A DNA stretch of 64,000 nt from Elusimicrobia bacterium GWA2_69_24 (GTDB lineage Bacteria; Elusimicrobiota; Elusimicrobia; UBA1565): assembly GCA_001799695.1 (NCBI GenBank), contig MGTY01000063.1:23255-87254 (forward strand), written 5' to 3'. This document shows positions 10,121-29,300 of this stretch, piece by piece. The translations under genes were made by a program, and so were the position numbers. Below the pieces are notes generated by a model, which saw nothing but the letters and a program-made list of their open reading frames with translations, was not told the origin of the DNA and searched no databases. How positions within the stretch are numbered: the stretch's first letter is position 1; each line of letters begins with the position of its first letter.

Positions 10121-10182
10121 GGCTCCGGCTCAGCGGCCGGCTGGGAAGTGTATTAAATTCACCGGCCCGATTGCTGGCCGGC

Positions 10183-11088: not shown

Positions 11089-11126
11089 GGAGGCCATGAT
11101 ATCAAACCCCGCGGCGCGCCCCCGGA

Positions 11127-12688: not shown

Positions 12689-12704
12689 GAGGTCAGCTCC
12701 GCAG

Positions 12705-12753
12705 ACACTTGAATACTTGTTCAAATGTTAACAGTAAAGCGTGTCCGCGTCAA
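12705..12753 (-). promoter_or_regulatory. sigma70-type promoter with overlapping ArsR/SmtB operator
   Basis: Minus strand TTGACG-N17-TAACAT (12753-12725); imperfect inverted repeat ACACTTGAATACTTGTTCAAATGT at 12705-12728. Confidence 0.8.
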
Positions 12754-12777: not shown

Positions 12778-14310
12778 TCACCACCAGCGGCCCTCGGCCC
12801 CCACGTCGCGCTCCCCCCCGGCGACGTCGAACCAGCGCTTGGCTCGCTGCGGGCGGCCCGGGAGCCTCCGCCCGCCCTGGCCCACCAGCCTCCCCTCCGG
12901 CAAGGCCCCCTCCGCCAGGAGCCGAGCCGCCTCCGCCTCCAGGAGCGCTGGAGGGGACCCGCCGGAACCCGCTGCCGCGGCGAAAGCCGCCCAGCGCTCC
13001 GGCTCGGAACGCAGGCGGCAGTAGGCGGCCGCCAGGCGGCTCGCGCGGACCAGGTCGCCGGCGCTGAAAGAACGGGTGCTCCGCACCAGCCCTTCCGGAT
13101 CCGTCTCGATCCCGAAGCGGTCCAGCATGCGGGCCAGGGGGGCGTTGGGAAGCACGACGAGGTCGAAGAAGGTGATCTGCGCGGCCGGCGAGAAGCGGAG
13201 CGCCCAGCCCACGCTTTCCCGGAAGGAGTCGTAATCGTCCCCCGGCAGGCCGAGAATGAGCTCCAATTCGACGCGGACGTTGGGATGAGCGATCAGGCTG
13301 CGGATGTTCCGCGCCGACCGCTCGAGGTCCAAGGGACGGCCGACGCTGCGCAAGGTCGGGGCATGGGTGGATTGTATCCCCAGGGCCAGCATGACCCGCG
13401 GCACCCGCCCCAGGGCCGCGACGGTCCCGGGGTCGAGGAACTCCGGGCTGAGCTCCAGGTACAGCACCCCGTTCCAGTCCCGGAAGACCTCGAGCACCCG
13501 GCGCGCCCGGTCCTGGTCCGCGTTCAGGGTAGGGTCGGTGAGGTAGACGGTCCCCGCGAAGCCGGCGCGCCGCAGCGCCGAGACCTCCCCCCGCAGACGG
13601 TCCAGAGCGAAGGTCCGCACCGTATGCCGCCCGGCGTGGTAGTCGCAGTAGACGCAGGCCCCGGCGCAGCCGCGGGACGTCTCCAGGCAGACCATCCCCA
13701 CCGCGCCCGGACGGACGGAGACCGCGCCGGAAAGGTACGGCGATGGGAGGGCGCCCAGGTCGGAGACCTCGCGCGCGGCTCCGGTCCACAGCGCCGAGTT
13801 TCCGCGGCGCAGCGCGAGACCGGGAACGGACTCCGCCGCCGTGCCGTCCAGCCAGGCCTCCAGGAGCCCCGCGAAGGGGACTTCCCCCTCCCCGGGGATC
13901 GCGCAATCCACGAAGGAGTGCCCGCGCAGGAAATCGCGCAGGCGGGCGGGGTCGCGCGGCACCTCCGGCCCTCCCAGGACCACGCGGACCCCGGGCTGCC
14001 GGGCCTTCAGCGCCTTGCAGGCGCGCAGGACCGCGTTCAGGTTCCATAGGTAGCAGCCGAAGGCCGCGACGTCCGGGCGGGTGCGCAGCAGCGCGGCGGC
14101 CGCCGCGGGCCCCCGGACGCCGTCTGTGAAGACGCGGTTCTCCATGACGCATCTCCCGGCGAGCCCGGGAACGGCCTGCGCGTAGGCGCGGACGGAGCCC
14201 AGGCCCAGCGGCAGGTCCGCGAGCAGCCGCACGCAGCCGTAGCGGTCCTCCGCCCCGCGCGCGCGCGCATGAGGCCAGAAGGTCTCGATATAGGAGAAGG
14301 CTACCCTCAC
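12778..14310 (-). CDS. cobalamin-dependent radical SAM protein (rSAM9)
   Basis: PDVAAFGCYLWN, GGPE, GEGE and ETSRGCAGACVYC; GTG start 1 nt after the upstream stop; 510 aa, paralog of 14312-15844. Confidence 0.9.
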   Translation of the reverse strand: MRVAFSYIETFWPHARARGAEDRYGCVRLLADLPLGLGSVRAYAQAVPGLAGRCVMENRVFTDGVRGPAAAAALLRTRPDVAAFGCYLWNLNAVLRACKALKARQPGVRVVLGGPEVPRDPARLRDFLRGHSFVDCAIPGEGEVPFAGLLEAWLDGTAAESVPGLALRRGNSALWTGAAREVSDLGALPSPYLSGAVSVRPGAVGMVCLETSRGCAGACVYCDYHAGRHTVRTFALDRLRGEVSALRRAGFAGTVYLTDPTLNADQDRARRVLEVFRDWNGVLYLELSPEFLDPGTVAALGRVPRVMLALGIQSTHAPTLRSVGRPLDLERSARNIRSLIAHPNVRVELELILGLPGDDYDSFRESVGWALRFSPAAQITFFDLVVLPNAPLARMLDRFGIETDPEGLVRSTRSFSAGDLVRASRLAAAYCRLRSEPERWAAFAAAAGSGGSPPALLEAEAARLLAEGALPEGRLVGQGGRRLPGRPQRAKRWFDVAGGERDVGAEGRWW

Positions 14311-14311
14311 C

Positions 14312-15844
14312 CTACCACCACCTCGGATAGGTCCCGACGTCTTCCCCGGCGGCGCGGGATTCGATCCAGCGATGGACCCGCGGCGCCCAGTCCGCGAGCC
14401 GCCGGCCACCCTGGCCCACGACGCGGATGTCCGGGATGCGCCCCTCGGCCCGCAGGCGCCGGACCTCGTCCTCCAAAAGCGCGGAAGGCCGCCGGGCGGA
14501 CGCCCCGGCCGCGCGTTCGAAAGCGCTCCAGCGCTCCGGGTCCGAACGCAGGTGCGAATAGGCCGCGACCAGCCAGCTCGCGCGCGCCAGGTCCCGCTCC
14601 GGGAAACCGCGGCAGCCGGTCACCAGCCCCGCCGCGTCCGCCTCCAGCCCGAAGTCCCCCCGGCTGGACGCCAGCGGGGAGTTGGGCAGCAGCACGAGGT
14701 CGAAAACGGTCAGGTGCGGCCGCCGCGGGGAGAAGGACAGCACCCAATCGATGCTGCCGCGGAAGGACGCGTAGCTTTCCCCGGGGAGGCCCAGGAGCAG
14801 CTCCAGCTCGACGCTGACGTTGGGATGGGAGAGCAGGGCGGCGATGTTCCGCGCGCTCTTGCGGAGATCGCAGGGCCGCCCGACGGCCGCGAGCGCTTCG
14901 GGAGACGTCGACTGTATCCCGATCGCCAATGAGGGGGCCGCCATGGCCGCGATGGCGCGGATGGACCCCGGCGTGAAATCCCCGGGAGTGAGCTCCATGT
15001 GCACGGGATTGGGCAGGTCCCGGAGCAGGCGGAAGACGGCGGCGCCGCGGTCCCGCGCGGCGTTCAGGCTCGGGTCGGTGAGATAGACGCAGCCCTGGAA
15101 ACCGGAGCGCCGCACGGCCTCCAGGTCCCGCCGCAGGCGCTCCGGGGGGAAGCGCCGAACACGATGGCGGCCGGCGTGATAATCGCAATAGGAGCAGCGG
15201 AACGGACAGCCGCGGGCGGTCTCCAGGGTGAGCATGCCCATGGCTCCCGGCCGGATGCTCAGCGCGCCGGATGCGTACGGCGCCGGGATGTCCCCGAGCT
15301 CGACGACGGGCGCGGCCGGGGGCCCGACCACGACCCCGTCCCCCTGCCGGAACGCCAGACCCGGGACCGAGACCGGAGCCTTCTTGCGCAGCAGCGCCCG
15401 CAGGAGGTCGCGGAAGGCGATCTCTCCCTCCCCGCGGACCAGGAAATCGGCCGCCGGGATCCCGGCCAGCAGCGCGCTCAGGGCCGCGGAATCCCTCGGG
15501 ATATCCGGCCCGCCCAGCACCACGAGGGGCTTGCGCCCCCTGGCGCCGAGCGCGTCACACACGCGCCGGACGCGTTCGGAGTTCCAGAGGGTGCAGGTGA
15601 AACCGACGAGGTCCGGGGCGCCGCGCAGGATCTCCGCCGCGGCCTGCGCGTCGCTCCCTCCGTCGGGGATGAGGAGGGTGCGCAGCTCCACGCGCCGGGC
15701 GAGCGCTGGATCCGCCTCCGCGAAAGCGCGCAGGCAGCCGATCCCCAGCGCGCCGTCCGCGGACAGCCGCACGCAGCGGTAGCGGTCTTCACCCCCGTCC
15801 GTCCGCGTCCAGAAGCTCTCCAGGTAGACCAGCACGACCTTCAT
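14312..15844 (-). CDS. cobalamin-dependent radical SAM protein (rSAM8)
   Basis: PDLVGFTCTLWN, GGPD, GEGE and ETARGCPFRCSYC; ATGA overlap; 510 aa. Confidence 0.9.
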   Translation of the reverse strand: MKVVLVYLESFWTRTDGGEDRYRCVRLSADGALGIGCLRAFAEADPALARRVELRTLLIPDGGSDAQAAAEILRGAPDLVGFTCTLWNSERVRRVCDALGARGRKPLVVLGGPDIPRDSAALSALLAGIPAADFLVRGEGEIAFRDLLRALLRKKAPVSVPGLAFRQGDGVVVGPPAAPVVELGDIPAPYASGALSIRPGAMGMLTLETARGCPFRCSYCDYHAGRHRVRRFPPERLRRDLEAVRRSGFQGCVYLTDPSLNAARDRGAAVFRLLRDLPNPVHMELTPGDFTPGSIRAIAAMAAPSLAIGIQSTSPEALAAVGRPCDLRKSARNIAALLSHPNVSVELELLLGLPGESYASFRGSIDWVLSFSPRRPHLTVFDLVLLPNSPLASSRGDFGLEADAAGLVTGCRGFPERDLARASWLVAAYSHLRSDPERWSAFERAAGASARRPSALLEDEVRRLRAEGRIPDIRVVGQGGRRLADWAPRVHRWIESRAAGEDVGTYPRWW

Positions 15845-17625
15845 GCCTCGGGTCCTCCGGAGCGCGGCGTGGGCCAGCGCCCCCAGACGGTCAGACCCAG
15901 CCGGGCCAGCCCGCCCGTGGTCGAGGCCGAGGGCGCGACGGAGGCGGAGTAGCGCAGGCTCAGGTGCGCGGCCTCGAAGGCCTCGGCCTCGCGGATGAAA
16001 TCGTCGATGGCCAGCTCCCCGGGGGCGCGGTAGGGCACGTTGAACGGGTCCAGCCAGCCCTCGGCCCCCGCGGGCAGGCGGAGTCCGAGCTCGGCGCGGC
16101 GGAGGAAGGCGCGCGTGAACCGCGCCAGGCAGAAGCGGAACAGGATGACCTTGTAGATGGTCTCCGCGCGCTCCGAGACCCAGCGCAGGGTGTCGTGGAA
16201 CGATTCCCGCGGCTGGAGCGGGTGGCAGAGCAGGAAGACGAAGGGCGCGATGCCGGAGCGCCAGCAGGACCGCAGCTGCGCGTCGGCCGGCTCGAGCTCG
16301 ATGCCCTTGGAGAAGGCGTCCAGCTCGCCCTTGGTCACCGTCTCCAGGCCGAAGAAGAGCTCCTTGCAGCCGGAGGCGGCCAGGTCCCGGAAATGCGCCT
16401 CGTCCAGCCCCGCGTCGAACCGGGCCAGGGATTCCCAGGTGTAGGCCGAGCCGCGCTCGCGCAGGGACCGGGCGAAGCGCCGCAGCACCGCTCCCGGCGC
16501 TCCGTTGTCGGAGAGGGTGAAATGAGTGCGCCCGTAGAGGCGGTGCATCTCGTCCATGTGGTCCAGGATGCGCGACAGATGGCGGTCCGAGACCCCCTCC
16601 TTGGGCGTGGAATGCAGCTCCGTGTAGCCGGGGAAGACGTGATAGCAGAAGGTGCATTGCGCCCAATGGCAGCCGCGGGTCAGGCGGACCGCGAGCGTCG
16701 GCATGGGATAGAGGTCCATGGGCAGGCCGTCATAGACCGGGAACTCCAGCGCCTCGAGAGGGATGGGAGCGGCCGGAGGCTCCGGAGCCCGGCCGCGCAG
16801 GACGACCCCGCCGATCCCTTCCAGACCTCGGCCGGAATCGACCCGGTCCAGGATCTCCAGGAGCGGGAGCTCCCCCTCGTGCAGCACCGCGGCGTCGAAC
16901 CGTTCGAAGAAGGCGGCGAACCCGGGCAGGAGCTCGCCCGCCGCCGTGCACCAGACCCCGCCCGCCACGATCCGGCTGGAGGGGGCCCGCTCCCGCGCCA
17001 GGCGCGCCAGGACCAGGGCCGGGATCAGCTGGGAGGCGGAGCAGAGCGTCACCCCGAACACCTTCGGGGCTCCCCGCGCCAGGACCCGGTCCAGGAATCC
17101 CGCGTAGAACTCCTCCAGCACGGGGAAGCGCTCGCGGGACAGGGCCGCGACGTCCTCCGCCGACCAGGACGGCGGGCGGAAGGTCACGGCGTCCAGGAGT
17201 TCGACGAAACCGCGCCAGGCCCCGGGCTCGGCCAGCGGCCGCAGGGCCTCCGGCAGCTCCGGCAGGGGGACGGTCTCCTTCACGTTCGAGAAGAGGTTCT
17301 CGCGCGCGGCGCGGCGATAGAGTTCCCGGGACGGAGAGCGCCCCAGCTTGAGCCGCAGCGGCGCGGGCTTGGCCGCGTTCATGGCCCGGGCCGCGCGGTC
17401 CAGGAAATCTCCGCGCGGGCCGCGCCAGGCCAACTCCCGGAAGCAGCGCTCCAGGACCTGGGGCCGGCACAGATGGCGATACATGAACTCCATGTTGGCG
17501 TCGGCCTGCGCGACGGTGCGCCCGTGCTTGCGGAGGTTCGCGGTCAGCTGCGGGATGCCGAGCTCGGGATGGGTGACGAGTATGTTGAGGGGCGGGAAGA
17601 CGAGCACGGCGTCCGGGGCGCTCAT
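15841..17625 (-). CDS. cobalamin-binding-type radical SAM protein (rSAM7)
   Basis: LVFPP...P.LGI, IVAGG, EGE and TRGCHWAQCTFC (Cx4Cx2C variant); FFGLE. Confidence 0.85.
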   Translation of the reverse strand: MSAPDAVLVFPPLNILVTHPELGIPQLTANLRKHGRTVAQADANMEFMYRHLCRPQVLERCFRELAWRGPRGDFLDRAARAMNAAKPAPLRLKLGRSPSRELYRRAARENLFSNVKETVPLPELPEALRPLAEPGAWRGFVELLDAVTFRPPSWSAEDVAALSRERFPVLEEFYAGFLDRVLARGAPKVFGVTLCSASQLIPALVLARLARERAPSSRIVAGGVWCTAAGELLPGFAAFFERFDAAVLHEGELPLLEILDRVDSGRGLEGIGGVVLRGRAPEPPAAPIPLEALEFPVYDGLPMDLYPMPTLAVRLTRGCHWAQCTFCYHVFPGYTELHSTPKEGVSDRHLSRILDHMDEMHRLYGRTHFTLSDNGAPGAVLRRFARSLRERGSAYTWESLARFDAGLDEAHFRDLAASGCKELFFGLETVTKGELDAFSKGIELEPADAQLRSCWRSGIAPFVFLLCHPLQPRESFHDTLRWVSERAETIYKVILFRFCLARFTRAFLRRAELGLRLPAGAEGWLDPFNVPYRAPGELAIDDFIREAEAFEAAHLSLRYSASVAPSASTTGGLARLGLTVWGRWPTPRSGGPEA

Positions 17626-17735
17626 CGGCAGGCTCGACGGCGCGCAGTCTTGCGGGCGCCGACGGCACTGTGCCCGGGCACAGTCGATACTGTTCGAGGC
17701 CCGCGACCGCCGAAGCCGATGTTATAGAGCTTCAT
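17622..17735 (-). CDS. putative 37-aa small ORF inside the radical SAM operon
   Basis: TGATG overlap with the upstream stop and ATGA overlap with the downstream start; MKLYNIGFGGRGPRTVSTVPGHSAVGARKTARRRACR; no homology recognised. Confidence 0.3.
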   Translation of the reverse strand: MKLYNIGFGGRGPRTVSTVPGHSAVGARKTARRRACR

Positions 17736-19297
17736 CAATAATGTCCGTCTGTTCGTCTGGGTGTTTGTTTTCCAAGCGCCGTTGTCGTTCGAACCCGACA
17801 ACGACGCGCGACCCCGCCGCGCGCGTTCGCGGCGAGCCAGGCGCGGGCCCCCTCCGCCACCCGCTCGGCGGGCACCGGGTCCGGGCCCGCGGCCAGGGGC
17901 GTCAGATATTGGAGCGCGCCGCGCTCCCACTCGGCCAGGGAGCGCTCCATGGGGATCCCCCGGGCTTCCAGGAAATCGGACAAAGAGGACGCCGCCGCCC
18001 AGAGCGGGCCGCCGCCCCGGCGCAGCGCGTCCCAGGCCGCGGGATGCCGGCGGAAGAAACTCAAACGAAGGGCAGTTCGGCGCCCGTCGCGCAGTTCGGC
18101 CGCCGAAAAGGTCCTCGTCGAGCGGACGCTGTAGGGAGGCTCCGCGTCGGCGCGGATGCCCAACTCCCGGCGCCGGCGATGGAACTCGGTCCCGGGGAAG
18201 AGCTGCATGGGGAAGACCTGCGCCTCGGGGACGTCCAGCGCGGACATCCACTCCAGGCTGCGCCGGTAGCCCCGCAGGTCGTCGCCGGGCAGGCCGAGTA
18301 TGAGCTGTATCGAGAGCCGGGCCTTCGGAGCCTTGCGCTTTAGGAGGTCGACGCCCCGGCGCACCGCCGCCTCGTCGAAACGGCGGCCGGCCGCGCGCAG
18401 GGCCTTCGGGTTCACGGACTGCACCCCGCCTTCCAGGATGAACCCGCGGTGGTCGCAGAGGCCGGCGAGCTTGGCGTCGATGTTCCCGAAATAGGCGTTG
18501 AACCAGAAGCGCGCCTCCTGCCGGGGATCGGCGGCGCGGATCGCGCGCAGGACCGCGGCGGCGCGCTCCCGGTGGAGGAACAGGTCGGGATCGGCGAAAT
18601 GCACCAGCGTCCGGGGATCCATGCGCAGGATGGCCCGGAGCTCGGCCGCGACCCGCTCCAGGGGAAAGTGCCGCGGCCGGACGCCGTTGGGCCAGGAACA
18701 GAAGGCGCACGCGTAGGGGCAGCCCCGGGTGGTCTCGATGGCCGCCCGGCCCATTCCGGCCCAGGCTTGGGGCAGGGGTCCGGACAGATAGGGGGACGGC
18801 AGGGTCTTCAGGTCGCGGATCGGCGTGCGCCCGGCGGTCCGCAGCGTCCTCCGGCCGCGGCGCAGGACCAGACCGGCCACGTCCTCGAGAGCGCCGCGGC
18901 CGAGCCACGCGCGCAGGACGCCGGCGAAGGTCTCCTCCCCCTCGCCCACGACCACGGCCTCCGCGCCCGTGCGGCGGAGCAGGCGCTCCGGATGGAGCGA
19001 CGCCTCCTGGCCGCCCAGGACGAGATGGATGCCGGGGATGCGCGCGCGCAGGAGCGCGGCCAGGCGGACGACGGCCTCCTCGTTGCAGAGCTGGCAATGG
19101 AGTCCCGCGGCGTCCGCGCCCGCGGCCTCCAGCCGCCGCGCCAGGGCGTCCAGGTCGTCCTCCATGGATTCGTCGACGATGGACAGCTCCACCGCGCCCA
19201 GGTCCGGCTGCGACTCCGCGTAGGCCTTGAGATAGCCCAGGCCCAGAGCGTTGGCCCGCTCCTCCCGCGGCAGCAGCGACACGAGGGCCGTCTTCAT
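17735..19297 (-). CDS. cobalamin-dependent radical SAM protein (rSAM6)
   Basis: LGLGYLKAYA, GGQE, GEGE, ETTRGCPYACAFCSW and LILGLPGD. Confidence 0.9.
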   Translation of the reverse strand: MKTALVSLLPREERANALGLGYLKAYAESQPDLGAVELSIVDESMEDDLDALARRLEAAGADAAGLHCQLCNEEAVVRLAALLRARIPGIHLVLGGQEASLHPERLLRRTGAEAVVVGEGEETFAGVLRAWLGRGALEDVAGLVLRRGRRTLRTAGRTPIRDLKTLPSPYLSGPLPQAWAGMGRAAIETTRGCPYACAFCSWPNGVRPRHFPLERVAAELRAILRMDPRTLVHFADPDLFLHRERAAAVLRAIRAADPRQEARFWFNAYFGNIDAKLAGLCDHRGFILEGGVQSVNPKALRAAGRRFDEAAVRRGVDLLKRKAPKARLSIQLILGLPGDDLRGYRRSLEWMSALDVPEAQVFPMQLFPGTEFHRRRRELGIRADAEPPYSVRSTRTFSAAELRDGRRTALRLSFFRRHPAAWDALRRGGGPLWAAASSLSDFLEARGIPMERSLAEWERGALQYLTPLAAGPDPVPAERVAEGARAWLAANARGGVARRCRVRTTTALGKQTPRRTDGHY

Positions 19298-20904
19298 AGC
19301 GAATACTTCCAGTTGCGGGCCGGTATGCGCGAGCGCACCGACGCGCCCCCCACCTGGAGCTTCCGGTCCCCGCGCTCGGCCCAGAGCCGCAGGGTCCGCG
19401 CGAACAGCGCGGTGAAGGATGCCATGCAGCGGTCCTCCGCGCGCCGGCCCACTCCCCCGAAGACCCCGCCGACGAGCCGCAGGAGCGCGGCCGAGCCGGG
19501 CTCCGGAGCCCCGGCTTCGGAGACCAGCTGCAGGCCGACCCGTCCCGACTCCCGGAGATAGCGCTGGCCCGGACGCACGCGTTCCAAACGCAGGATGCGG
19601 CGTTCGCCGTCGATGGAGACCGGGACCTCGAATTCGCAGGTGTGGGAGAAATCGAGCCCCGCGGGCCGCGGAACCCCCGCTCCGCTCTGGCAGAGGCAGA
19701 CTCCCTCGGAAAACGGGGCGGCCCGCGTCCCGTTCCGGGCGCGCAGCGCGCGCTCCCAGAACGCCAGGCAGTCCGCTCCCATCTCATGGCCCCGATAGCC
19801 CGCAGGCCCTTCCTCCCAATAGAAGAGCCGGCCCGCGATGCGCGAGCGCGCGGCTGGACCGAGGGCGAGGACCGAGTGCGGGCTCAGCGGGAGCCGCGGG
19901 TCATCTTCGTCTTCGCGACCGTAGTAATGGGCGGTCGGGCGCGCGCCGGGGGACTCCACCGAGAAGCACCAGTCCGAGTCTGTCGCCATCGGGCGGGCGA
20001 CCCCCAGCAGAGGACGGAAGCGATAGCCCCGGGCCGCCGCGAACGGCGGAAGCCGGCGCGCCAGCCCCTCGAACAGGCCCAAGAGACGCCGCTCCAGCCG
20101 GGCGGCCCCTCCGGGCGGCAAGCCTTCGAGATAGGGCGCGGTGGGACGGAACAAGTTGACCTGGATCTGGGCGGGCGCGAACCGGGCGGCGGCCGCGAAG
20201 GAATCGCATAGGTCGCGGGGACCCTGCCCGGCCAGGCCGGCCAGCAGGTCGATGTTGAACCCGTCGGGGAAGCCCGCCGCGCGCACGGCCGCCACGGCCC
20301 GGGCCACCAGAGCCCGGTCCTGGTAGCCGCGGTCCACGCTGCGCAGCAAAGACGGGTCGAAGGTCTGGACCCCCATGCTGGCCCGGGTGAAGCCGAGCTC
20401 CCGGGCCAAGCGGAGCTTGCGCGCCGAGGCGCCGCGGGGATTGAGCTCGAAGGTCGCCACCGCGTCCCGGGAGAGCCGGAACGAGGAGTGGAAAGCCTCC
20501 ATGAGCCTCGCCAGCTGGCGCTCCGAGAGCAGGGTCGGGGTGCCGCCGCCCAGCGCCATGCTGTGCACTTCGAGGCCGCGGAGCGCGTCCCCCGCGCGGC
20601 GCAGCCGGGCCGTCAATCCCACCAGGTAGGCGTCGACCTGCGCCGCCGACCTCATGCGCTCGCGCTGGATGTCGCAATACCGGCACAGGCTGCGGCAGAA
20701 AGGGAGATGCAGGTAGACGTTGAGCCGCGCGCCCCGGGGATCGCGGCGCAGGCGCTCGGCGTGGCTCCGCCACACGCTCAGGACCTCGCCCTCGCCGAAA
20801 CCGCGGACGGGCAGGAGATGCAGGAACAGCCCGAACGCCTCCTCCAGGTCGAGCCGGTCCCCGGCGCAGTCGCGATACAGCTCCCCCGGCGCGGTCTTCC
20901 TCAT
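19294..20904 (-). CDS. HemN-like radical SAM protein (rSAM5)
   Basis: VYLHLPFCRSLCRYC, GGGTPT, ELNP, RASMGVQTF and NIDLLAGL motifs; ATGA overlaps at both ends. Confidence 0.85.
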   Translation of the reverse strand: MRKTAPGELYRDCAGDRLDLEEAFGLFLHLLPVRGFGEGEVLSVWRSHAERLRRDPRGARLNVYLHLPFCRSLCRYCDIQRERMRSAAQVDAYLVGLTARLRRAGDALRGLEVHSMALGGGTPTLLSERQLARLMEAFHSSFRLSRDAVATFELNPRGASARKLRLARELGFTRASMGVQTFDPSLLRSVDRGYQDRALVARAVAAVRAAGFPDGFNIDLLAGLAGQGPRDLCDSFAAAARFAPAQIQVNLFRPTAPYLEGLPPGGAARLERRLLGLFEGLARRLPPFAAARGYRFRPLLGVARPMATDSDWCFSVESPGARPTAHYYGREDEDDPRLPLSPHSVLALGPAARSRIAGRLFYWEEGPAGYRGHEMGADCLAFWERALRARNGTRAAPFSEGVCLCQSGAGVPRPAGLDFSHTCEFEVPVSIDGERRILRLERVRPGQRYLRESGRVGLQLVSEAGAPEPGSAALLRLVGGVFGGVGRRAEDRCMASFTALFARTLRLWAERGDRKLQVGGASVRSRIPARNWKYSL

Positions 20905-23000
20905 GGGGCCGACCCTTCCAGCCGGGACCAGGTCGCGCTCCCGGAGCCGAACGCCCGGCGGGGGGGGTCCGGCCGCCAGCCCCCTTTCCGGAGGTCCGCC
21001 ATGACGGCCGAGACCGGGCGGCCGCGGAAATCGTCGAGGATCGTGAGACGGGCCCCGGGCCGGCAGCGCCGCCGCAGTCCGGCGAGCCAGGCCCCGGCAT
21101 CCCCCGGCAAGCCGCTCAGGGCGTTCGCGAAGACGACCCGCCGGTAGCCCCCGCCCCAATCCGCCGGCCGCGGCAGGGGAGCACGCCTCCCCATGCGGAG
21201 TATCCCGCGCACGGGGAGCGGGGAGCCCAGCACGTGACGCGTGTCGTGGGGGTCTTCGGACAGGAGCACCAACCCCGCCACCCCCTCCAGGCCGGCCTGC
21301 AGGTGGGAATCCCGGGCCCAGCAGAAAAGGAGGGTGGGTCCGCCGCCCGCTCCCCGCAGACTGCGGGCCAAGGCGGGGTTCCGGCAGACGCCGGTGAAGA
21401 GCGCGCGGTTCACCGCGGCCTCCAGGACGCGCGCGGGCTCCCCGGCGGAGCCGAAGCGGGACGCGGCCCAGCGCGCGGCGCCGCGCAGGATGGCCAGCCG
21501 GTCGCGCAGGGACACGCGGCGGGCGGGCCATTCCTGGAAAGGCAGGAGTTCGTTGGGCGGACGCGAGGACTCGATCGTCTCGAACAGCCGGCGCGGGGAG
21601 AAGTCGCCCTCCGTTTCGAGCCAGTCCGCCAGCTCCGAGCACAGGCGCGTGACCGAGCCCTCCTTCCGGGCCTCCGCCGCCTCATCCAGGACCAGCCGGA
21701 CCGGCCCCAGCCCCAGGAGGAAGACCGCGTCGAAGAGGAGCCTCCGGGCCGCGCGGATGTCGGCCGCGGAGAAGCCGTCGGTGGAGGTCACGAGGTAGGG
21801 AGGCTCCTTCTGCCAGCGCAAGCCGTGCCGCCCACAGTCCCGGGCGAAGGGCGTGCCGGGCAGGACCATGAGGTGATAGACCTCGCAGGTGTCGACGCCC
21901 TGGGACCAGACCCAATCGAGACTGCGGCGGAAACCCGCCAACGTGTCTCCCGGCAGGCCGAGCACCAGCTGGGTCTTGATGCGCGCGCTGGGGGCTTCCC
22001 GCCGCAGCAGGCGCAAGCCGCGCGCGGCCTTCCCGAGGTCGAAGCGGCGGTTGCAGGGGAAGAAGGCGGCCGGGTTGGCGGACTGGAGCGCCGCCTTGAA
22101 CGAGAAGGCCGGGCGGTCCGCCAGCCGCGCCCCGACCCGGTCGATGTGCTCCGGGTTGGTCTCGAATTCGAAGCCGAGCCTGCCTGCGGGGTCCTCGCGC
22201 CGGATGAGCCGCAGAAGCCGGGCCCCGGCGGCGCGGTCCTGGAAGATGTCGGCGTCGGCGACCAGGACCTTCTTCGCCCCGGTCCGCAGCAGCAACCGGA
22301 TGTCGGCGCGGATGCGCGCCGGGGAGAATCGCCGGACCCGCGAACCCTTCCCGGGCCAGGCGCAGAACGCGCAGTCGAAAGGGCAGCCGCGCGCGGTCTC
22401 GAGCACGGTCCATTCCCGCCGCCCCGCGCCCGTCAGGCCGCAGGGAGAGGGCAGGCGGTCCAGGTCGCGCAGCGGAGGGCGCGGCGGATTGACGACCGCG
22501 CGGCCCCGCGAGCGGAAGGCCAGGCCCGCGACGCCCGCGAAGCCGGCGCCGCGGCCCAGGGACCGCGGCCCAGGGACCGCGGCCCGGTCGAGGAGTTCGG
22601 CGAACGTCGCCTCCCCCTCGCCGCAAACCACGAGATCCGCGCCGCGCTCCATGATCCAGGCCGCCGGGTCCGAGGACGCCTCCGGCCCGCCCACCAGGAT
22701 GAGGACCCCCGGGGCCGCGGCTCGGAGAGCGCGCACGACCCGGCGCACCTCCGCGACGTTCCAGGCGTAGCAGGAGAATCCCACGAGGTCCGGCTTCTCG
22801 GCCGCGATCCGGCCGGCCAGCGTCTTCGCGCTCGCGGACCCGACGATCCACTCCCGCAAGGACACCTCCGCGCGGCCGCGCCGCGGCTTCCGGCAGCCCT
22901 CCGCGTAGGCCTTCAGGCACGCCAGGGCCAGCCCGCCCTCGTAGTCGGCGTTCGCCGAGAGCGCGGCCAGCAGCACGCGCAGCGGCGGGCGCCGCTTCAT
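20901..23000 (-). CDS. cobalamin-dependent radical SAM protein with C-terminal methyltransferase-like domain (rSAM4)
   Basis: PDLVGFSCYAWN, GGPE, GEGE and ETARGCPFDCAFCAW; 699 aa; ATGA overlap. Confidence 0.9.
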   Translation of the reverse strand: MKRRPPLRVLLAALSANADYEGGLALACLKAYAEGCRKPRRGRAEVSLREWIVGSASAKTLAGRIAAEKPDLVGFSCYAWNVAEVRRVVRALRAAAPGVLILVGGPEASSDPAAWIMERGADLVVCGEGEATFAELLDRAAVPGPRSLGRGAGFAGVAGLAFRSRGRAVVNPPRPPLRDLDRLPSPCGLTGAGRREWTVLETARGCPFDCAFCAWPGKGSRVRRFSPARIRADIRLLLRTGAKKVLVADADIFQDRAAGARLLRLIRREDPAGRLGFEFETNPEHIDRVGARLADRPAFSFKAALQSANPAAFFPCNRRFDLGKAARGLRLLRREAPSARIKTQLVLGLPGDTLAGFRRSLDWVWSQGVDTCEVYHLMVLPGTPFARDCGRHGLRWQKEPPYLVTSTDGFSAADIRAARRLLFDAVFLLGLGPVRLVLDEAAEARKEGSVTRLCSELADWLETEGDFSPRRLFETIESSRPPNELLPFQEWPARRVSLRDRLAILRGAARWAASRFGSAGEPARVLEAAVNRALFTGVCRNPALARSLRGAGGGPTLLFCWARDSHLQAGLEGVAGLVLLSEDPHDTRHVLGSPLPVRGILRMGRRAPLPRPADWGGGYRRVVFANALSGLPGDAGAWLAGLRRRCRPGARLTILDDFRGRPVSAVMADLRKGGWRPDPPRRAFGSGSATWSRLEGSAP

Positions 23001-25228
23001 GACGCCCGGCCCCCTCCGCGGGAGGAAGACGGCGCCGCCCCGGGGACCGCGGCCCCTGGGCCGCGGCACTCCACGAGAGTCCACGGGATCCCGCCGGCGC
23101 GGGAGACCGTGCGCGGCGCGGTCCGTATCGTCCAGCCAGCCGAGAGCAGGTCCTTCCGGAGGCCGGCCAGCCGCTCCCGGCGCGTCCGCTCCGGCTCGGC
23201 CGCGACCTCCAGCGGATACCGCCCCTGCAGGGAATCCAGGATCATGAGCCGGGCTCCGGCGGGACAGGCCCGGCGCAGGACCGCGAGCCAGGGGACCGCC
23301 TCCTGCCCGGGGAGATAGCTGTAGATGTTGGCGGCCAGGATGCGGGAGTAGCCCTGTCCCCAGCGCTCCGGCCGGACCAGCGAACGGGGGCGCAGGCCCA
23401 CCCGCACCGCGTCCTTGACGAGGGGCGACCGCAGCAGTCCGGGATCGAGGTCGTGCTTGTCTTCCGAAAGCAGGACCAGGCCCTGGACGTCCCGCCGGCG
23501 TACCAGGAGTTCGCGGTCGCGCGCCCAGCACAGGAGCAGGGTCCCGCCCGGAGGCAGCGGCTCCCCCCGGTCCTGGTTGAGGAATTCCGCGATCTCCGTA
23601 CCCCGGGAAGCCGCTTCCCACCGCGCGCGCCCGGCCGCCGCGTCGAGGAAGCGGGCCGCCGCGCCCGCGAGGACCGGGTCCCGCTCCTTGAGCCGGGAGA
23701 GCGCCCAGCGGCGCGCGGCTTTCAGGGCCGCGATCCGCCGGGGGACGGGCAGCTCGTCGGTGTTCCAGTTGCCGGAAGGCAGGAACACCCCTTCCGAGCG
23801 GCCGCGGTTCCACTCCGCGAATCCCCGCTCGAACGGACGCCCCGCAGCCACGGCGTCGGTCAGCTCGCGGCAGGCCTCGGTCGGCCCCGTGCCCGCCTCG
23901 TCGAGACGGCCCTGCATGCCTTCCAGGACCGCGCGCAAGGCCCACAGGTTGAAGACGAAGGCGACCCGCTGCAGGAGCTTGCGGGCCTCCAGGAGGTCCG
24001 CCTCGGAGAAGGTAGCGGTGGCGAGGACCCAGTGGGGCGGCTCCGGATCCCAGCGCAGGCCGTGGCGGGCGGATTCGCGGTGATAGGTCGTCCCCGGCAG
24101 CACGGCCAGCCGGTAAACGTAGACCTCGTCGGCGGCCGTGCGCAGGGTCCAATCGAGGCTGCGCCGGAACCCGTCGAGCGTGTCTCCGGGCATGCCCAGC
24201 ATGAGCTCGACCCCGACGGTGCACAGCGGGGCGTGCCGCTGGAGGAGCCGGATCCCGGCCCCGAAACGCTCCACGCTGAAGACCCGGTTGGCGGCGCGCA
24301 GGGCCTCGGGCGTCGTCGATTCCAGGGCGCCCCGGAACAGGAAGCCGGAGCGGTTGCAGAGGCGGGCGAGCTCCGCGTCCATGTAGCCGTAGTTGGTCTC
24401 GAAATGGAACTGCAGGACGCCGCCCGGATCCTCCTCGTGGAACGCCTTCAGGATGGCCTTGGCCCGCGTCCGGTTCATGAATAGGTCCGCGTCCGCGACG
24501 AAGAGCCGGGTGCCCCGGGTCTGCGCCGCGATGGCGCGGATCTCGGCCCGGACCCGGGCTTCCGAGAAGTAGCGCATCCGCCCGCGAGTGCCCAGCCAGG
24601 CGCAGAACGCGCAGGAGAAGGGGCAGCCCCGCGTGGTCTCGATCACCCCCCCGTCGAAGGCGAAATCCGCGAAACGGATGATCCCCTGGAGATAGGGCGA
24701 AGGGATGGAATCGAGCTCCGCGATGGGGGGTCGCGGCGCGTTGACCGCGGCCCGGCTCCCGCCGCGGGCCGCCAGCCCGAGGATGTCCTGCGCGGGCAGT
24801 CCCGCGCAGAGGCGGCGCAGGAGCTCGGCGAAGGCGGCCTCGCCTTCGCCGAAAACGACGAAATCCGCGTCGTGGCTGGTCAGCCAGCGCCCGGGGTCCG
24901 CCGACACCTCGGGCCCGCCGAGCACGACGCGCAGCCGGGGCGAAGCCGCGCGCAGGAGAGGCACCAGTTCGCCGATGGTCCCCGCGTTCCAGAAATAGCA
25001 GGAGAAGCCCACGAGGTCCGGCTTTCCCTCCAGGATGCTCTCCGCGATCGCGGCCGCGGGGCGCGCCCCGAGCACATGCTCCTGGATGGTGATGGGACAG
25101 CGCTCGGGCCCGGACCCGGGCCGCGAACCGGCGTACGCCTTGAGGTAGCCCAGGGGCAGCATCCCGCCGTACGCGTTATCCGGGGACAATGCGACCAAGG
25201 ACGTCCGGAGGAGGCGCCCCGGCTTCAT
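22997..25228 (-). CDS. cobalamin-dependent radical SAM protein with C-terminal methyltransferase-like domain (rSAM3)
   Basis: PDLVGFSCYFWN, GGPE, GEGE and ETTRGCPFSCAFCAW; 743 aa; ATGA overlap. Confidence 0.9.
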   Translation of the reverse strand: MKPGRLLRTSLVALSPDNAYGGMLPLGYLKAYAGSRPGSGPERCPITIQEHVLGARPAAAIAESILEGKPDLVGFSCYFWNAGTIGELVPLLRAASPRLRVVLGGPEVSADPGRWLTSHDADFVVFGEGEAAFAELLRRLCAGLPAQDILGLAARGGSRAAVNAPRPPIAELDSIPSPYLQGIIRFADFAFDGGVIETTRGCPFSCAFCAWLGTRGRMRYFSEARVRAEIRAIAAQTRGTRLFVADADLFMNRTRAKAILKAFHEEDPGGVLQFHFETNYGYMDAELARLCNRSGFLFRGALESTTPEALRAANRVFSVERFGAGIRLLQRHAPLCTVGVELMLGMPGDTLDGFRRSLDWTLRTAADEVYVYRLAVLPGTTYHRESARHGLRWDPEPPHWVLATATFSEADLLEARKLLQRVAFVFNLWALRAVLEGMQGRLDEAGTGPTEACRELTDAVAAGRPFERGFAEWNRGRSEGVFLPSGNWNTDELPVPRRIAALKAARRWALSRLKERDPVLAGAAARFLDAAAGRARWEAASRGTEIAEFLNQDRGEPLPPGGTLLLCWARDRELLVRRRDVQGLVLLSEDKHDLDPGLLRSPLVKDAVRVGLRPRSLVRPERWGQGYSRILAANIYSYLPGQEAVPWLAVLRRACPAGARLMILDSLQGRYPLEVAAEPERTRRERLAGLRKDLLSAGWTIRTAPRTVSRAGGIPWTLVECRGPGAAVPGAAPSSSRGGGRAS
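23009..23069. repeat. 61-bp GC-rich dispersed intragenic repeat, copy A
   Basis: 57/61 identical to 27578-27638, translated in a different reading frame. Confidence 0.8.
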
Positions 25229-27402
25229 GCCGCCTTCCCCTCCAGCCGGTACCAGGCCACCCCGTTGGGGGACATCGACCGCTCGGGAGGGGCGACGGGC
25301 TCCCAGCCCGAGGCGGAGAGCGCCCCGCCCGCGGCCGCGGCCGCGTCCTCGGGGGAACGCGGTTCGGGACCGAGAGCGGGGTCCAGCGGGCTCCAGCCCA
25401 GCATGTCGTCGAGGATGAGCAGGCGGCAGCCGGGCGCGCAGCGGCGCCGGAGCCGCTTCAGCCAAGCGGACCGCGCCGGAGCCGGCAGGAAGGAGAAGGT
25501 CTGCGAGAACACGACGCGCGAGCAGCCCTCGCCCCATAGCTCGGAGCGCGGGTCCTTCCCGGGCTCCGTCCGGACCCGGACCACGTGCCGCAGGGGGAGC
25601 GGGGAGCCCAGGACGGGGTTGAGGTCTCGCTCCTCCTCCGTCAGGAGCACGACCCCCTGGAAATTCTCCAGCCGCACGTGGCGGTCCACGTCCCTCGCCC
25701 AGCACACCAGCAGGGCCCCCCCGCCGGACGGAGCCGCCGCCCCCTCCTTCATGAAGCGGGACAGGGCGGCGTCGAAAGCCGCCTCCCGCCAGAGCACGCG
25801 ATGCAGTGCCATGCGCAGGAAGCGCTCCATCCTCTCCCGGAGCCGGGCCGGCGCGCGCACCAGGCGCTGCCGTGCCCAACGCGCGAACCCGGAGAGGAGG
25901 GCCGCCCGCTCCCGGGGGGTGAGGACCTCCTCGGGGCGCTCGATGAAGGCCAGCCGCTCCTTGAGCATCCGCGCTTCCAGCTTCGCGTGCTCCGCTTCGA
26001 ACGGATAGACCCGGCGCGCCTCCAGCCAGCGCGCGGCGTCCTCGCAGGCGCGGACCAGGTTCCCGCGCCCCGCACCGGAGGCCGGGCGCAGGGCCAGCAG
26101 CGCGTCGCGCACCGGCCAGAGGTTCATCAGGAGCGAGGACCGGTGCACCGCCCGCCGGGCGCCGCGGAACGCCGCCGCCGGGAAGGTGGGGGTGGCCTCC
26201 ACGAGATAGGGCGCCTGCGCGGCCCAGCGCAGGCCCAGACGCCGCGCCGAACGCATGAAGGCGGTCCCGGGCAGCACCATGAGATGGAACGCGCGGCAAT
26301 AGTCGAAGCCCTGCTCCAGGACCCACTCCAGCGTCTCGCGGTAGCCCTCCGGGGTGTCCCCGGGCATGCCCAGGATCAGCTCGATGCCCACCTGGGCCTT
26401 GGGCGCGCGGCGCCGCAGCAACCGCACGCCCCGCGTGAACGCGGGCAGGTCGCAGCGCCGCCGGGCTTCCCGGAATACCGCCTTGTTGGTGGACTGCAGC
26501 CCGGCCGTGATGTTGAAGCCGCGCTTGTCCGCGAGAGCGGCGAGCTCCGCGTCGAAATGGCCGGGATTGGTCAGGAACTCGAACTGCAGGGTGTCCCGCG
26601 GGTCCTCCTCGCGGAAGATGCGCAGGATGCGCTTGGCCCGGGCGCGATCGAGGAACAGGTCGGCGTCCGCCAGGCACAAGCGGATCCCGCCGCCCTGCGC
26701 CACCGCGCCGCGCACCTCCTGCCGAACGCGCTCCTCGGGGAAATAGCGCACCTTGCCGCCTTTCCCCGGCCAGGAGCAGAAGGCGCAGTCGAACGGGCAG
26801 CCGCGCGCGGTCTCGAGCACCATGCATTCCCGGCGCTGCCGGTCGACCCGCAGGATGCCGCTCAGATACGGAGAGGGGAGCGTCTCCAGGTCCGCGGGGG
26901 GGCGCGGCGGGTTGGCGACGGGTCCGTCCGCCGCGCGATAGGCGAGCCCCGGCACGCCGGCGAGGCTGCCGCCCGTCATGGCCTTGCCCAGCAGCTCCGC
27001 GAAGGTGAGCTCGCCTTCCCCGAACACGACGGCGTCCGCCGGAAGCCGGCCCAGGGCTCCCGCCGGGTCCGGGGAGACCTCCGGACCTCCGAGCACGACC
27101 AGCGTCCCCGGGGCGCGGCGCTTGACGATGGCGGCGACCTCCCCCACCGTCTTGACGTTCGATGCGTAGCAGGTCAGGCCGACCAGCCCGGGCTCCCCGG
27201 CCAGGACCTCGGCCGCGATGGCCTCCGGCGGGGTCTGGGTCTGGACCCACTCCGAGATACCGATCTCCACGCGGTCGGAGCCCAGCCCCGGCCGGGACTG
27301 GGCGTAGGCCTTGAGCATGGCCAGGGGCAGCCGCCAGTCGAAGTCGGTGTCCGCCGAGGGGATGCCCAACAACACGCGGAAAGGGGGCTCCCGGCCCGTC
27401 AT
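25225..27402 (-). CDS. cobalamin-dependent radical SAM protein with C-terminal methyltransferase-like domain (rSAM2)
   Basis: PGLVGLTCYASN, GGPE, GEGE and ETARGCPFDCAFCSW; 725 aa; ATGA overlap. Confidence 0.9.
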   Translation of the reverse strand: MTGREPPFRVLLGIPSADTDFDWRLPLAMLKAYAQSRPGLGSDRVEIGISEWVQTQTPPEAIAAEVLAGEPGLVGLTCYASNVKTVGEVAAIVKRRAPGTLVVLGGPEVSPDPAGALGRLPADAVVFGEGELTFAELLGKAMTGGSLAGVPGLAYRAADGPVANPPRPPADLETLPSPYLSGILRVDRQRRECMVLETARGCPFDCAFCSWPGKGGKVRYFPEERVRQEVRGAVAQGGGIRLCLADADLFLDRARAKRILRIFREEDPRDTLQFEFLTNPGHFDAELAALADKRGFNITAGLQSTNKAVFREARRRCDLPAFTRGVRLLRRRAPKAQVGIELILGMPGDTPEGYRETLEWVLEQGFDYCRAFHLMVLPGTAFMRSARRLGLRWAAQAPYLVEATPTFPAAAFRGARRAVHRSSLLMNLWPVRDALLALRPASGAGRGNLVRACEDAARWLEARRVYPFEAEHAKLEARMLKERLAFIERPEEVLTPRERAALLSGFARWARQRLVRAPARLRERMERFLRMALHRVLWREAAFDAALSRFMKEGAAAPSGGGALLVCWARDVDRHVRLENFQGVVLLTEEERDLNPVLGSPLPLRHVVRVRTEPGKDPRSELWGEGCSRVVFSQTFSFLPAPARSAWLKRLRRRCAPGCRLLILDDMLGWSPLDPALGPEPRSPEDAAAAAGGALSASGWEPVAPPERSMSPNGVAWYRLEGKAA

Positions 27403-29300
27403 GGCCGCAGGAGCTCCTGGTCCGCGGGATACGCCGCGAGCTGCTCCCGGAAAGTCCCCACGCAATGCGGATAATGGGGGCAGCCCAGGCAGGTCTCGGG
27501 CTTCACAAAACTCTGGTGGAGGATGTAGAGCTTGATGGAATCCGCGATCCTGGCGCCGGCGATGACCGGCGAACGCTGCCCCCTCCGCGGGAGGTTGACG
27601 GCGCCGCCCCGGGGACCGCGGTCCCCGGGCCGCGGCACCCGCCGCTGGATGCAGACCGGGAAGGCGGCCAGGGACCGGGACCGCACCTCGCGCAGGATCT
27701 GCTCGTAGGAGGGGGCCAGGTCCGCGTAGGGCAGGTTCATGCTGTCGGGGTCCTTGGGCCGGAGCGGGAGGATGCTGAAGGGGAGCTTCATCTCCTGGAG
27801 CGCCCAGCGCTCCAGCTTGGCGACGGAGCGCAGGTTCTGCTTCATCAGATTGGTGTGGAGATAGACCTCCGCCCCGCCCACGCGGCGCAGGTTCACGATA
27901 CCCGCCACCACGTCGCGGAAGCTCCCGGGGCGGCGGGTCAGGGCGTCGTGCTCGTCGGGGTCGCTGGAGTACACGGGGATGGGGAAGGACGTGGCGCCGG
28001 CCTCCACCAGCCGGCGCGCGAAGCCCGCGTCGGCCAGGAGCGTCCCGGAAGTCATGACCTCCACCTCCCGGAAGCCGCAGCGGCGGCAGAGGCGCAGGAT
28101 GTCCAGTATGCGGGGATGCAGGAGCGGCTCGTTGCCCAGGAGGGCGACCCGGGTCCGCCCCACCTTGAGGTTCTGCCGCATCGCGGCCTCCACCTCGTCG
28201 AAGCTCTGCCCGGGGTCCGCCACCTTGGCCTTGCAGAAGATGCAGTCCAGCAGGCAGCCGGAGCGCAGGAAATAGAACATGCGGTCCAGGTCCGGCAGGC
28301 GCAGGCGCAGGAAGCGGTCCTGCCCGCGGAAATCGGCCAATAGCAGCCCGCGCTTGATGGCCGGGTTCTCGGAGCGGTCATGGAACCCGCGGATAGGCTT
28401 CTTGAAGAAGGCGCAGAGGCTCAGGGCCAGATGCACGTTGTTGAGCCAGAGGCCCCGGGCCGCCCCGGTGAGGGCCGCGTTCGCGCGGGCAAGCCGTTCC
28501 CCCGGGCTCCGGAACAGGGCGTCCAGCCCGTCGAGGCCGCGCGCCGCGACCGCCGGGAAAGCCGCGCGGAGGCCCGGCCAGGGACCGTCGCCATGGGCGG
28601 GCCTCCAGACCAGCGCTCCGTCCGGACCCAGCCGGAGCTCGTTGGCCAGGAGCTCCGGCACCGGGTCCTCGTAGAGATTGAGCACGTCGAGCGGCTGGGG
28701 CCGGTCCCCGTGCTTCTGATTGAGCCCGCCCAGCCATTCCGACAGGCCGGCACGGAGCTTCCCCTCGGAGCCCGGCGGCCAGAGGACGCCGAGCTCCAGG
28801 CGCAGGCGCACCTTGGCCGGAGCCAGGGCTTCCAGCGCCTTGAGGCGGGGCCGCAGCGCCGGGAGGTCGCGCGGTCCGAGCACGGCTTCGAACACGCCCA
28901 GGACGCCCGCGGCCCGGAGGCGCCGCAGTTGGGCCGCGCTGCGCGCCAGCCCGGGTCCCTCCCGGGGACCGGCCCGGACCACGACCTCGGCTTCCAGCTC
29001 GCGGAGGGACCGGAGCAGCCCCGCGGGCACCGGCTCGGGGGTATCGAAGCTGAGGGAAAGCTCCCGCCCCTGCTCCAGCGCGGCGCGGTGGAGCTCACGG
29101 AGCGGGGCCAGCCAGAGGCCGCGGCGCCCCCACAACCCGCTGCCGCGCAAGGTCACCCGCAAGCGCAGGGGTCTGGAGGCGAGGAGGAGTCCGAGGGACT
29201 TCTCCAGGACGGCGCGCACCAGGGTCCGCCCGCCCTCGCGCGGCACGACCGTCAAGCCGTGCAGGACCCCGCCGGTGGACCCGACCTCGATCAGCCTCAC
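27399..29300 (-). CDS. two-domain radical SAM protein with C-terminal Cys motif (rSAM1; resembles HxsC-type maturases)
   Basis: GCLLDCIFC, GNEPLLHP, MTSG and C-terminal FVKPETCLGCPHYPHCVG; the N-terminal half lacks a CxxxCxxC motif. Confidence 0.8.
   Translation of the reverse strand: MRLIEVGSTGGVLHGLTVVPREGGRTLVRAVLEKSLGLLLASRPLRLRVTLRGSGLWGRRGLWLAPLRELHRAALEQGRELSLSFDTPEPVPAGLLRSLRELEAEVVVRAGPREGPGLARSAAQLRRLRAAGVLGVFEAVLGPRDLPALRPRLKALEALAPAKVRLRLELGVLWPPGSEGKLRAGLSEWLGGLNQKHGDRPQPLDVLNLYEDPVPELLANELRLGPDGALVWRPAHGDGPWPGLRAAFPAVAARGLDGLDALFRSPGERLARANAALTGAARGLWLNNVHLALSLCAFFKKPIRGFHDRSENPAIKRGLLLADFRGQDRFLRLRLPDLDRMFYFLRSGCLLDCIFCKAKVADPGQSFDEVEAAMRQNLKVGRTRVALLGNEPLLHPRILDILRLCRRCGFREVEVMTSGTLLADAGFARRLVEAGATSFPIPVYSSDPDEHDALTRRPGSFRDVVAGIVNLRRVGGAEVYLHTNLMKQNLRSVAKLERWALQEMKLPFSILPLRPKDPDSMNLPYADLAPSYEQILREVRSRSLAAFPVCIQRRVPRPGDRGPRGGAVNLPRRGQRSPVIAGARIADSIKLYILHQSFVKPETCLGCPHYPHCVGTFREQLAAYPADQELLRP
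27578..27638. repeat. 61-bp GC-rich dispersed intragenic repeat, copy B
   Basis: Matches 23009-23069; contains the perfect 22-bp palindrome CCCGGGGACCGCGGTCCCCGGG (27608-27629). Confidence 0.8.

Follow-up and report, generated by a model that had tools for sequence, protein, structure and literature searches.

We report that a stretch of 64,000 nucleotides from the source genome Elusimicrobia bacterium GWA2_69_24 (hereafter G000; the stretch, contig C63:23255-87254, is referred to as the window) carries at window positions 12778-29300, on the minus strand, nine consecutive genes for radical S-adenosylmethionine (SAM) enzymes, named R1-R9 in transcription order. We propose that the nine genes form one translationally coupled operon which, with a probability that we put at about even, would act as a detached tailoring module of a His-Xaa-Ser peptide system, the peptide HxsA4 being supplied in trans from another contig, C9, of the same genome. 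The translational coupling, the intact paralogous enzymes and the folds resembling TokK and CysS give good support to a multi-enzyme operon dedicated to modification. The original prediction, a dedicated iterative hypermodification pathway for an unknown scaffold, is accordingly retained with respect to the operon and amended with respect to the scaffold, for which HxsA4 is now a candidate; where that prediction left the choice between a peptide or protein and a lipid, the comparative evidence favors a peptide, and no lipid gene is linked to the homologues that we examined.

The neighborhood search for conserved small open reading frames (ORFs) that the original prediction had recommended was performed by clustering the small ORFs of 40 relatives' loci and four G000 contigs, with known genes masked. 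It recovered one clear family, HxsA4, of 84-179 aa proteins ending in long Ser-His-Gly repeats; besides this family and HxsD-like proteins no other conserved small-ORF family emerged from the same loci and contigs. Comparison of the HxsA4 genes from the relatives' loci L035-L042, L045, L073, L078, L080 and L085 revealed a common build: the N-terminus is rich in Lys, the leader is conserved, Ser-His-Gly is repeated about 8 to 35 times, and the C-terminus reads GQW, GAW or GSGT. The GSGT form was seen only in six genomes of the window's own family that are free of nitrogenase-like (NFL) genes. The sole HxS-repeat ORF of G000, at C9:22710-23144, scores 109.5 bits against the HxsA4 model NF038313 (cut-off 55), has about 17 Ser-His-Gly repeats and ends in GQW. 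It is flanked by two HxsB genes (501.2 and 466.0 bits, cut-off 370), by HxsC/HxsC4-like genes that stay below cut-off and by HxsD-like genes (35 bits, cut-off 41). The His-Xaa-Ser cluster as a whole (C9:12152-31507) comprises two HxsD-like/HxsB pairs, HxsC/HxsC4-like genes, HxsA4 and a 1064-aa fusion of B12-binding and SPASM domains, and the main NflHDK cluster follows on C9 after about 25 kb. Thus, the absence of visible substrate genes, which had been predicted, is true of the window itself, but a candidate substrate exists in trans, on C9, in the company of two HxsB genes.

We then examined the distribution of this peptide across 101 genomes of the order (G000 and 100 others) and 14 control genomes, classing as NFL-rich the 35 genomes with a best PF00148 E-value of 1e-30 or lower. 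Matches to PF00148 occur in 40 of the 101 genomes, with up to 17 in a single genome. HxsA4 exceeds its cut-off in 63 of the 101 genomes of the order and in 0 of the 14 controls. As it is found in 34 of the 35 NFL-rich genomes, the exception (G021) having an array that runs into the contig end, and likewise in 32 of the other 66, the NFL carriers are nested within the HxsA4 carriers. Genes for Nif11 and NHLP leader peptides were not found in G000; the NHLP search matched no control genome either and hence shows little.

One tie between the operon and these clusters is provided by R1. Its orthologue is single-copy in 18 of the 100 other genomes of the order, all 18 of which are NFL-rich, and Nfl genes share the 20-kb locus of the R1 orthologue in 10 of the 12 loci fetched. 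An HxsA4 match is present on the same contig, 2.9-12.5 kb from the R1 orthologue, in 10 of the 18 genomes (at 6.6-6.7 kb in six of them), and in five of the remaining eight the contig is too short to reach HxsA4 at such a distance. R1 is the single-copy hallmark family of the HxsA4/NFL superclusters, its relatives in the collection bearing organism names being nearly all groundwater metagenome-assembled genomes (MAGs) labeled "Elusimicrobia bacterium". Among the loci read, an R1 relative accompanies GQW-ending peptides in 8 of 9 genomes and GAW- or GSGT-ending ones in 0 of 9, which in genomes that are kin is only a hint of an association. Furthermore, a Methanosarcinales MAG (L093, 2960-13217) encodes a B12/SPASM fusion, an R1 relative and an HxsA4-like gene with a GQW end within 3.5 kb, the R1 relative (26% identity, E 8e-63) lying 1.2 kb from the HxsA4-like gene; no Nfl hits were obtained in this 21.8-kb locus. 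The core of the system, judged from this gene content, thus crosses domains without nearby nitrogenase-like genes.

The other enzyme types of the operon are found in comparable settings. A protein with the three-part build of R2-R4 is encoded about 100 nt from HxsA4 in G001:C37, and in G010:C33 an R3-like gene stands between HxsB and the HxsC-like and HxsA4 genes; neither G001 nor G010 has a PF00148 match. Among the best 35 R3-like places outside G000, HxsA4 is found within 9 kb of 12, another four have NFL genes alone within 17 kb, and two share a contig with the R1 orthologue. The gene next to the R1 orthologue in G069:C55, directly after it, is an R6 orthologue (E 4.7e-161), and the same contig holds an R5 homologue (E 1.1e-83) that is closer than the R5 paralogues on C63. 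R5 relatives were sought in 41 genomes only, and an initial contig scan with R5 as the sole query returned none. Of five R8/R9-type places, four either abut NFL genes (G004, G008) or have HxsA4 at a distance of 6-9 kb (G081).

With respect to the array itself, the predicted set of nine co-directional coding sequences (CDSs), each with a CxxxCxxC motif, is borne out by the translations and by Pfam. All nine are intact and open at the coordinates given in the table, each translation has one such motif (9/9, R1-R9), and eight of the nine match Radical_SAM (PF04055) above cut-off, the exception being R7 at 21.0 bits against 29.5. The junctions likewise agree with what had been described: the sequence shows each of the six ATGA overlaps between adjacent genes exactly, a single nucleotide lies between R8 and R9, and 16437 of the 16523 bases of the array are coding. 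Its GC content (0.71-0.76) is similar to that of the flanks. The B12-binding domain (PF02310) is above cut-off in six proteins (R2, R3, R4, R6, R8 and R9), and the earlier count of seven cobalamin-type enzymes is upheld for these, the seventh, R7, being divergent and below cut-off (17.7 against 32.1 bits). The array is hence composed of six clear B12-binding proteins and a weak one, one HemN-like protein (R5) and one MoaA/HxsC-like protein (R1). Groundwater metagenomes from two further studies contain DNA of the window, and independent contigs from such metagenomes are identical, without a mismatch, to parts of the array; one of 2604 nt bridges the R9/R8 and R8/R7 junctions. Among the datasets listed as carrying this DNA there was none from RNA, which says nothing for or against expression.

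Table. Coordinates (window positions) of the nine radical SAM genes, the spacer element and the two flanking genes.
Feature	Position	Strand	Description
R1	27399..29300	-	633 aa radical SAM protein; N-terminal ~340 aa of no known family
R2	25225..27402	-	725 aa cobalamin-type radical SAM protein, extended at the C-terminus; paralogous to R3 and R4
R3	22997..25228	-	743 aa cobalamin-type radical SAM protein; TokK/CysS-like body and methyltransferase-like C-terminal domain
R4	20901..23000	-	699 aa cobalamin-type radical SAM protein; architecture as R2 and R3
R5	19294..20904	-	536 aa HemN-like (class C type) radical SAM protein; C-terminal half matching no assigned family
R6	17735..19297	-	520 aa cobalamin-type radical SAM protein without the C-terminal domain of R2-R4
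Spacer R6-R7	17626..17734		109 nt; copy of a dispersed palindromic, apparently REP-like, repeat with a 37-codon ORF on it
R7	15841..17625	-	594 aa divergent B12-type radical SAM protein; additional N-terminal region of ~170 aa
R8	14312..15844	-	510 aa cobalamin-type radical SAM protein
R9	12778..14310	-	510 aa cobalamin-type radical SAM protein
Membrane protein	29314..33501	-	1395 aa, multi-pass, no known family; 13 nt upstream of R1
Permease	11429..12724	-	SO_0444 Cu/Zn efflux family 279.8 bits (cut-off 300), with C-terminal CopZ-like heavy-metal-associated domain

Full-length comparison gives 42-44% identity among R2, R3 and R4; the shorter R6 shares about 40% identity with these three, and R8 shares 51% with R9. 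R7 is 27-33% identical to R2 and R6, and two models of B12 radical SAM proteins, ApyD (E 5.5e-22) and TIGR03975, align with it across both domains. Among solved proteins R3 matches TokK (PDB 7kdx; E 1.7e-32) and CysS (9n1b; E 4.4e-32), both iterative C-methyltransferases, with which it shares the B12 domain and the radical SAM core. Its predicted model (predicted local distance difference test, pLDDT, 85.8) aligns with CysS and TokK over about 560 columns (for CysS E 5e-29, template-modeling score 0.70 by target), at 20-23% identity in the fold alignment. Unlike in TokK and CysS, whose substrates are, going by the titles of the PDB entries, pantetheinylated small molecules, a methyltransferase-like domain is added at the C-terminus of R2-R4. 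In R3 this part has a class-I methyltransferase-like fold (matches to DnrK, RdmB and NNMT, E about 1e-6 to 1e-7), in which the glycine-rich motif I is not seen when the family consensus is judged by eye. R3 has relatives in 1085 representatives at E <= 1e-30, and about 15 representative clusters have the full architecture. The cut-off of the KedN5 family (NF033712, 700 bits) is reached by none of the proteins, R3 being best at 161.3 bits and the others at 104-132; that of the RiPP (ribosomally synthesized and post-translationally modified peptide) maturation model TIGR03975 (281.85 bits) is likewise unreached, R2-R4 and R6-R9 scoring 46-76. BchE-type models score low on R2-R9 (E 1e-7 to 1e-16). 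In light of the likeness to TokK and CysS, we suggest that the cobalamin enzymes may be class B methyltransferases, which would move a methyl group from methylcobalamin onto an unactivated carbon.

The core of R5 matches HemN (1olt, E 2.1e-26) and NocN (E 3.1e-19); Pfam finds no HemN_C domain in it, and the STM4012, HemW and HemN models all remain below cut-off, the best at 132.6 bits against 380. R1 has core cluster cysteines C349, C353 and C356 and four invariant C-terminal cysteines, C550, C604, C607 and C613, and the NCBIfam search relates its core to those of the MoaA, AhbD and HxsC types. A fold search with its predicted model (pLDDT 86.2) returned generic radical SAM cores only (MoaA, BlsE, GDGT-MAS and viperin). 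Prediction of a complex of R1 with residues 1-100 of HxsA4 gave a score of 0.01, which counts neither for nor against an interaction.

The only longer spacer of the array, between R6 and R7, does contain the small ORF noted earlier, with a TGATG start and an ATGA end, but it is not a gene, because the stretch is a copy of a dispersed repeat. It recurs at five other sites of G000 (C132, C105, C17 and twice in C21) over 59-112 nt at 83-91% identity, and its perfectly palindromic core of 20 nt has 35 further short matches on the contigs of this genome, among 41 blastn rows in total. The copies on C105 and C21 deviate from that of the window in both arms of the palindrome, and on our reading of the alignment these arms still pair. 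As the ORF was also not found in any relative's locus screened, we rejected it as a precursor or other gene and read the spacer, from these sequence features, as an element like the repetitive extragenic palindromic (REP) sequences.

Upstream of the array the 1395-aa membrane protein is of uncertain membership in the operon; beyond it are an isochorismatase-family gene and a GH114 gene. Downstream, the permease gene starts 53 nt from R9, has a promoter-like site of its own (12753-12725) and is probably a separate transcription unit. The earlier statement that no exporter is adjacent is thus roughly true, with the qualification that a Cu/Zn-efflux-like permease does lie nearby under its own promoter-like site. 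A screen of 28 relatives' loci gave no homologue of either flanking protein, and both proteins were rejected as conserved partners. Adjoining the permease at window 6802-11220, on the minus strand, is a CotH kinase-like, DUF4956 and CYTH-domain trio that appears unrelated to the array. A solitary tenth B12-binding radical SAM gene occurs at window 40010-41599 on the minus strand, 10.7 kb from the array, and exceeds the cut-off for BchE, the anaerobic Mg-protoporphyrin monomethyl ester cyclase (542 against 481 bits). This gene stands in a genome that is not expected to be phototrophic. A tandem repeat search of the window yielded short GC-rich repeats only and no repeat-peptide gene.

G000 is a 4.2-Mb MAG of 132 contigs, 85% complete, with 8 NifD/K-like and 2 NifH-like genes, six of the former and both of the latter on C9. 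The remaining NifD/K-like pair, at C63:11244-13923, has HemN-like genes on either side, which are paralogues of R5, and at a distance of about 22 kb is the nearest to the array. It belongs to a compact operon outside the window (C63:9517-19313) coding, in order, for a SnoaL-like protein, a 1040-aa TPR protein, a HemN-like protein, the two NifD/K-like proteins and a HemN-like protein with HemN_C; no NifH-like gene is found beside this operon. About 28 radical SAM ORFs were found in G000 with the operon proteins as queries, and a 13-kb contig of one relative consists of ten radical SAM genes end to end, so that the array, unusual in general, is typical for this lineage. HemB and HemC are present in G000; CobS was not found, which in a MAG of this completeness does not imply its absence.

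The view that the array matches no recognizable cluster has to be given up, as suites of radical SAM genes beside group VI nitrogenase paralogues have already been published for groundwater Elusimicrobia, with function unknown. Meheust et al. 2020 (bioRxiv 10.1101/765248) describe two groundwater clades of the phylum that carry such paralogues (NflHDK), with up to 13 radical SAM genes beside nfl, some with B12-binding or HemN_C domains, and predict a tetrapyrrole substrate from the NifH phylogeny and these two domains. A 2026 review states that the function of group VI is still unknown and treats the tetrapyrrole idea as still the working hypothesis.

Based on the comparative evidence, we propose a lineage-typical supersystem built around HxsA4, which is surrounded by genes for HxsB- and HxsC-type maturases, for many other radical SAM enzymes and, in roughly half of the genomes that carry it, for NflHDK reductases. 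In G000, C9 would supply the peptide, both HxsB proteins and most of the Nfl proteins, and the operon on C63 would supply R1, the seven cobalamin-type enzymes and the HemN-like enzyme. The cobalamin enzymes would be TokK/CysS-like, possibly iterative, C-methyltransferases, and R5 and R1 may add methyl groups or cross-links, all of them acting on the Ser, His and Gly residues that recur in the repeats of HxsA4. Different positions or rounds might be served by the paralogue sets R2-R4 and R8-R9. Gene content, synteny and folds are observed, and from these we infer HxsA4 as the direct substrate and the chemistry of each enzyme. A wider and tentative reading, on balance doubtful, is that the NFL reductases and the radical SAM suites, the operon included, constitute one giant RiPP-like pathway acting on a poly(Ser-His-Gly) peptide and are not tetrapyrrole enzymes. 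Its product would be heavily C-methylated, cross-linked and possibly reduced, and could be a peptide-derived metal-binding polymer or cofactor.

Several points weigh against assigning the operon to HxsA4. C9 and C63 are not joined in the assembly, HxsA4 is on a contig other than that of the operon, and the window contains no HxsA-, HxsB- or HxsD-like gene; the link would therefore be one in trans, resting on synteny in other genomes. The profile search proposed by the original prediction recovered the Radical_SAM and B12-binding domains in the eight and six proteins mentioned above and brought none of the nine operon proteins to an NCBIfam cut-off. By the same test R1 is not HxsC but a separate, unnamed family, its best matches being HxsC (TIGR03977) at 59.2 bits against 267.9 and HxsC4 (NF038332) at 56.0 against 500. 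The B12 clade of R2-R4 is not exclusive to HxsA4, because many R3-like places are without the peptide: 17 of the best 35 have none of HxsA4, NFL or R1 on the contig, and nine of the 35 are in genomes without any HxsA4 match. R7 has few relatives, and these are near NFL genes in only one of six places. Moreover, the related genomes are kin, and all counts overstate their independence. Finally, the BchE-scoring gene together with HemB and HemC leaves a tetrapyrrole route standing as an alternative.

If the operon belonged to a group VI nitrogenase-like system modifying a tetrapyrrole-type small molecule into a cofactor, HxsA4 would be an unrelated neighbor or a scaffold or chaperone. This is in line with the proposal of Meheust et al. 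and the working idea kept in the 2026 review, and would suit the resemblance of R5 to HemN, the BchE-scoring gene of the window, the presence of HemB and HemC, and the NflDK pair with HemN-like flanks on the same contig. We nevertheless consider it unlikely: among solved structures R3 is closest to TokK and CysS, BchE-type models fit R2-R9 poorly, R1 relatives and R2-R4-type proteins accompany HxsA4 in places where no Nfl genes were found, and the NFL carriers are nested among the HxsA4 carriers; furthermore, as many as 17 NifD/K-like matches per genome would be odd for a single cofactor pathway. Alternatively, the operon could be a pathway of its own whose substrate is something else, for instance a lipid or a different natural product. 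This would account for the 22 kb that separate the array from the nearest Nfl genes, for HxsA4 being on a different contig and for the 16 of the best 35 R3-like places that have neither HxsA4 nor NFL listed on their contig. Under such a pathway the likeness to Hxs- and NFL-linked enzymes would only reflect the large lineage-specific expansion of radical SAM paralogues, consistent with the roughly 28 such ORFs of G000, and the squalene/phytoene synthase gene at window 46845-47840 would offer a lipid connection. Yet R1 is single-copy, tightly syntenic with HxsA4 and NFL in relatives and translationally coupled to R2. Lipid, acyl carrier protein, polyketide synthase and nonribosomal peptide synthetase genes were not seen beside the homologous arrays examined, nor did the small-ORF clustering yield a further family that might serve as a substrate, and we regard an independent pathway as distinctly unlikely.

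The genes next to the array suggest a further option, in which the enzymes modify the 1395-aa membrane protein, whose gene has the same orientation and stops 13 nt short of R1, or serve metal handling together with the Cu/Zn-efflux-like permease, which follows R9 closely and has a CopZ-like domain. Given that neither protein has a homologue in the relatives' loci screened, that the permease has its own promoter-like site and that the membrane protein is of no known family, we hold this to be highly improbable. We accordingly return to the operon as a putative tailoring module of the HxsA4 system.

Among characterized systems, the classical HxsABCD system (NCBIfam TIGR03976-03979) is the natural point of comparison. 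As described in Nat Commun 2026 (PMC13128918), it has four genes, an antiphage role and a peptidoglycan-binding domain, matures a five-repeat protein with a +8 Da change, and has 99.7% of its occurrences in Pseudomonadota. The system of G000 resembles it in combining a ribosomal His-Xaa-Ser repeat protein with radical SAM maturases, the two HxsB proteins and HxsA4 exceeding their cut-offs and R1 having HxsC and HxsC4 as its best family matches, below cut-off. It differs in that the peptide has 8-35 Ser-His-Gly repeats, with no extra domain seen on HxsA4, and in that the clusters span tens of kilobases and include B12-type and HemN-like radical SAM enzymes and nitrogenase-like genes; the operon, moreover, has no Hxs gene passing a cut-off. 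With the group VI NFL clusters of Meheust et al. the array shares the lineage and the kinds of radical SAM enzyme (B12-binding and HemN-like), but it is not adjacent to Nfl genes. The nearest functional analogy would be offered by the polytheonamide-type RiPP pathways, in which several class B radical SAM enzymes place many C-methylations on one ribosomal peptide. In contrast to these, the core peptide of HxsA4 is a simple tripeptide repeat, and TIGR03975 stays below cut-off.

Radical SAM arrays beside group VI NFL genes, of unknown function, were already known in this lineage; what is new is that the NFL/radical SAM superclusters encode an HxsA4 peptide. The study of Meheust et al. is not among the 8 papers in which the term "His-Xaa-Ser" was found, and in the literature searched no paper links His-Xaa-Ser peptides with Elusimicrobia or with nitrogenase-like genes; some of the loci may, however, already appear in Figure S6 or the datasets of that study. 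The presence of HxsA4 in the same superclusters, with enzyme families that follow the peptide even where nitrogenase-like genes were not found, provides a concrete substrate candidate. If this assignment is true, the His-Xaa-Ser system would be widened from a four-gene antiphage device to a far larger modification machinery in which a single operon encodes as many as seven cobalamin enzymes, and, should the giant RiPP-like reading be true as well, the Nfl proteins would be the first nitrogenase-like enzyme acting on a ribosomal peptide.

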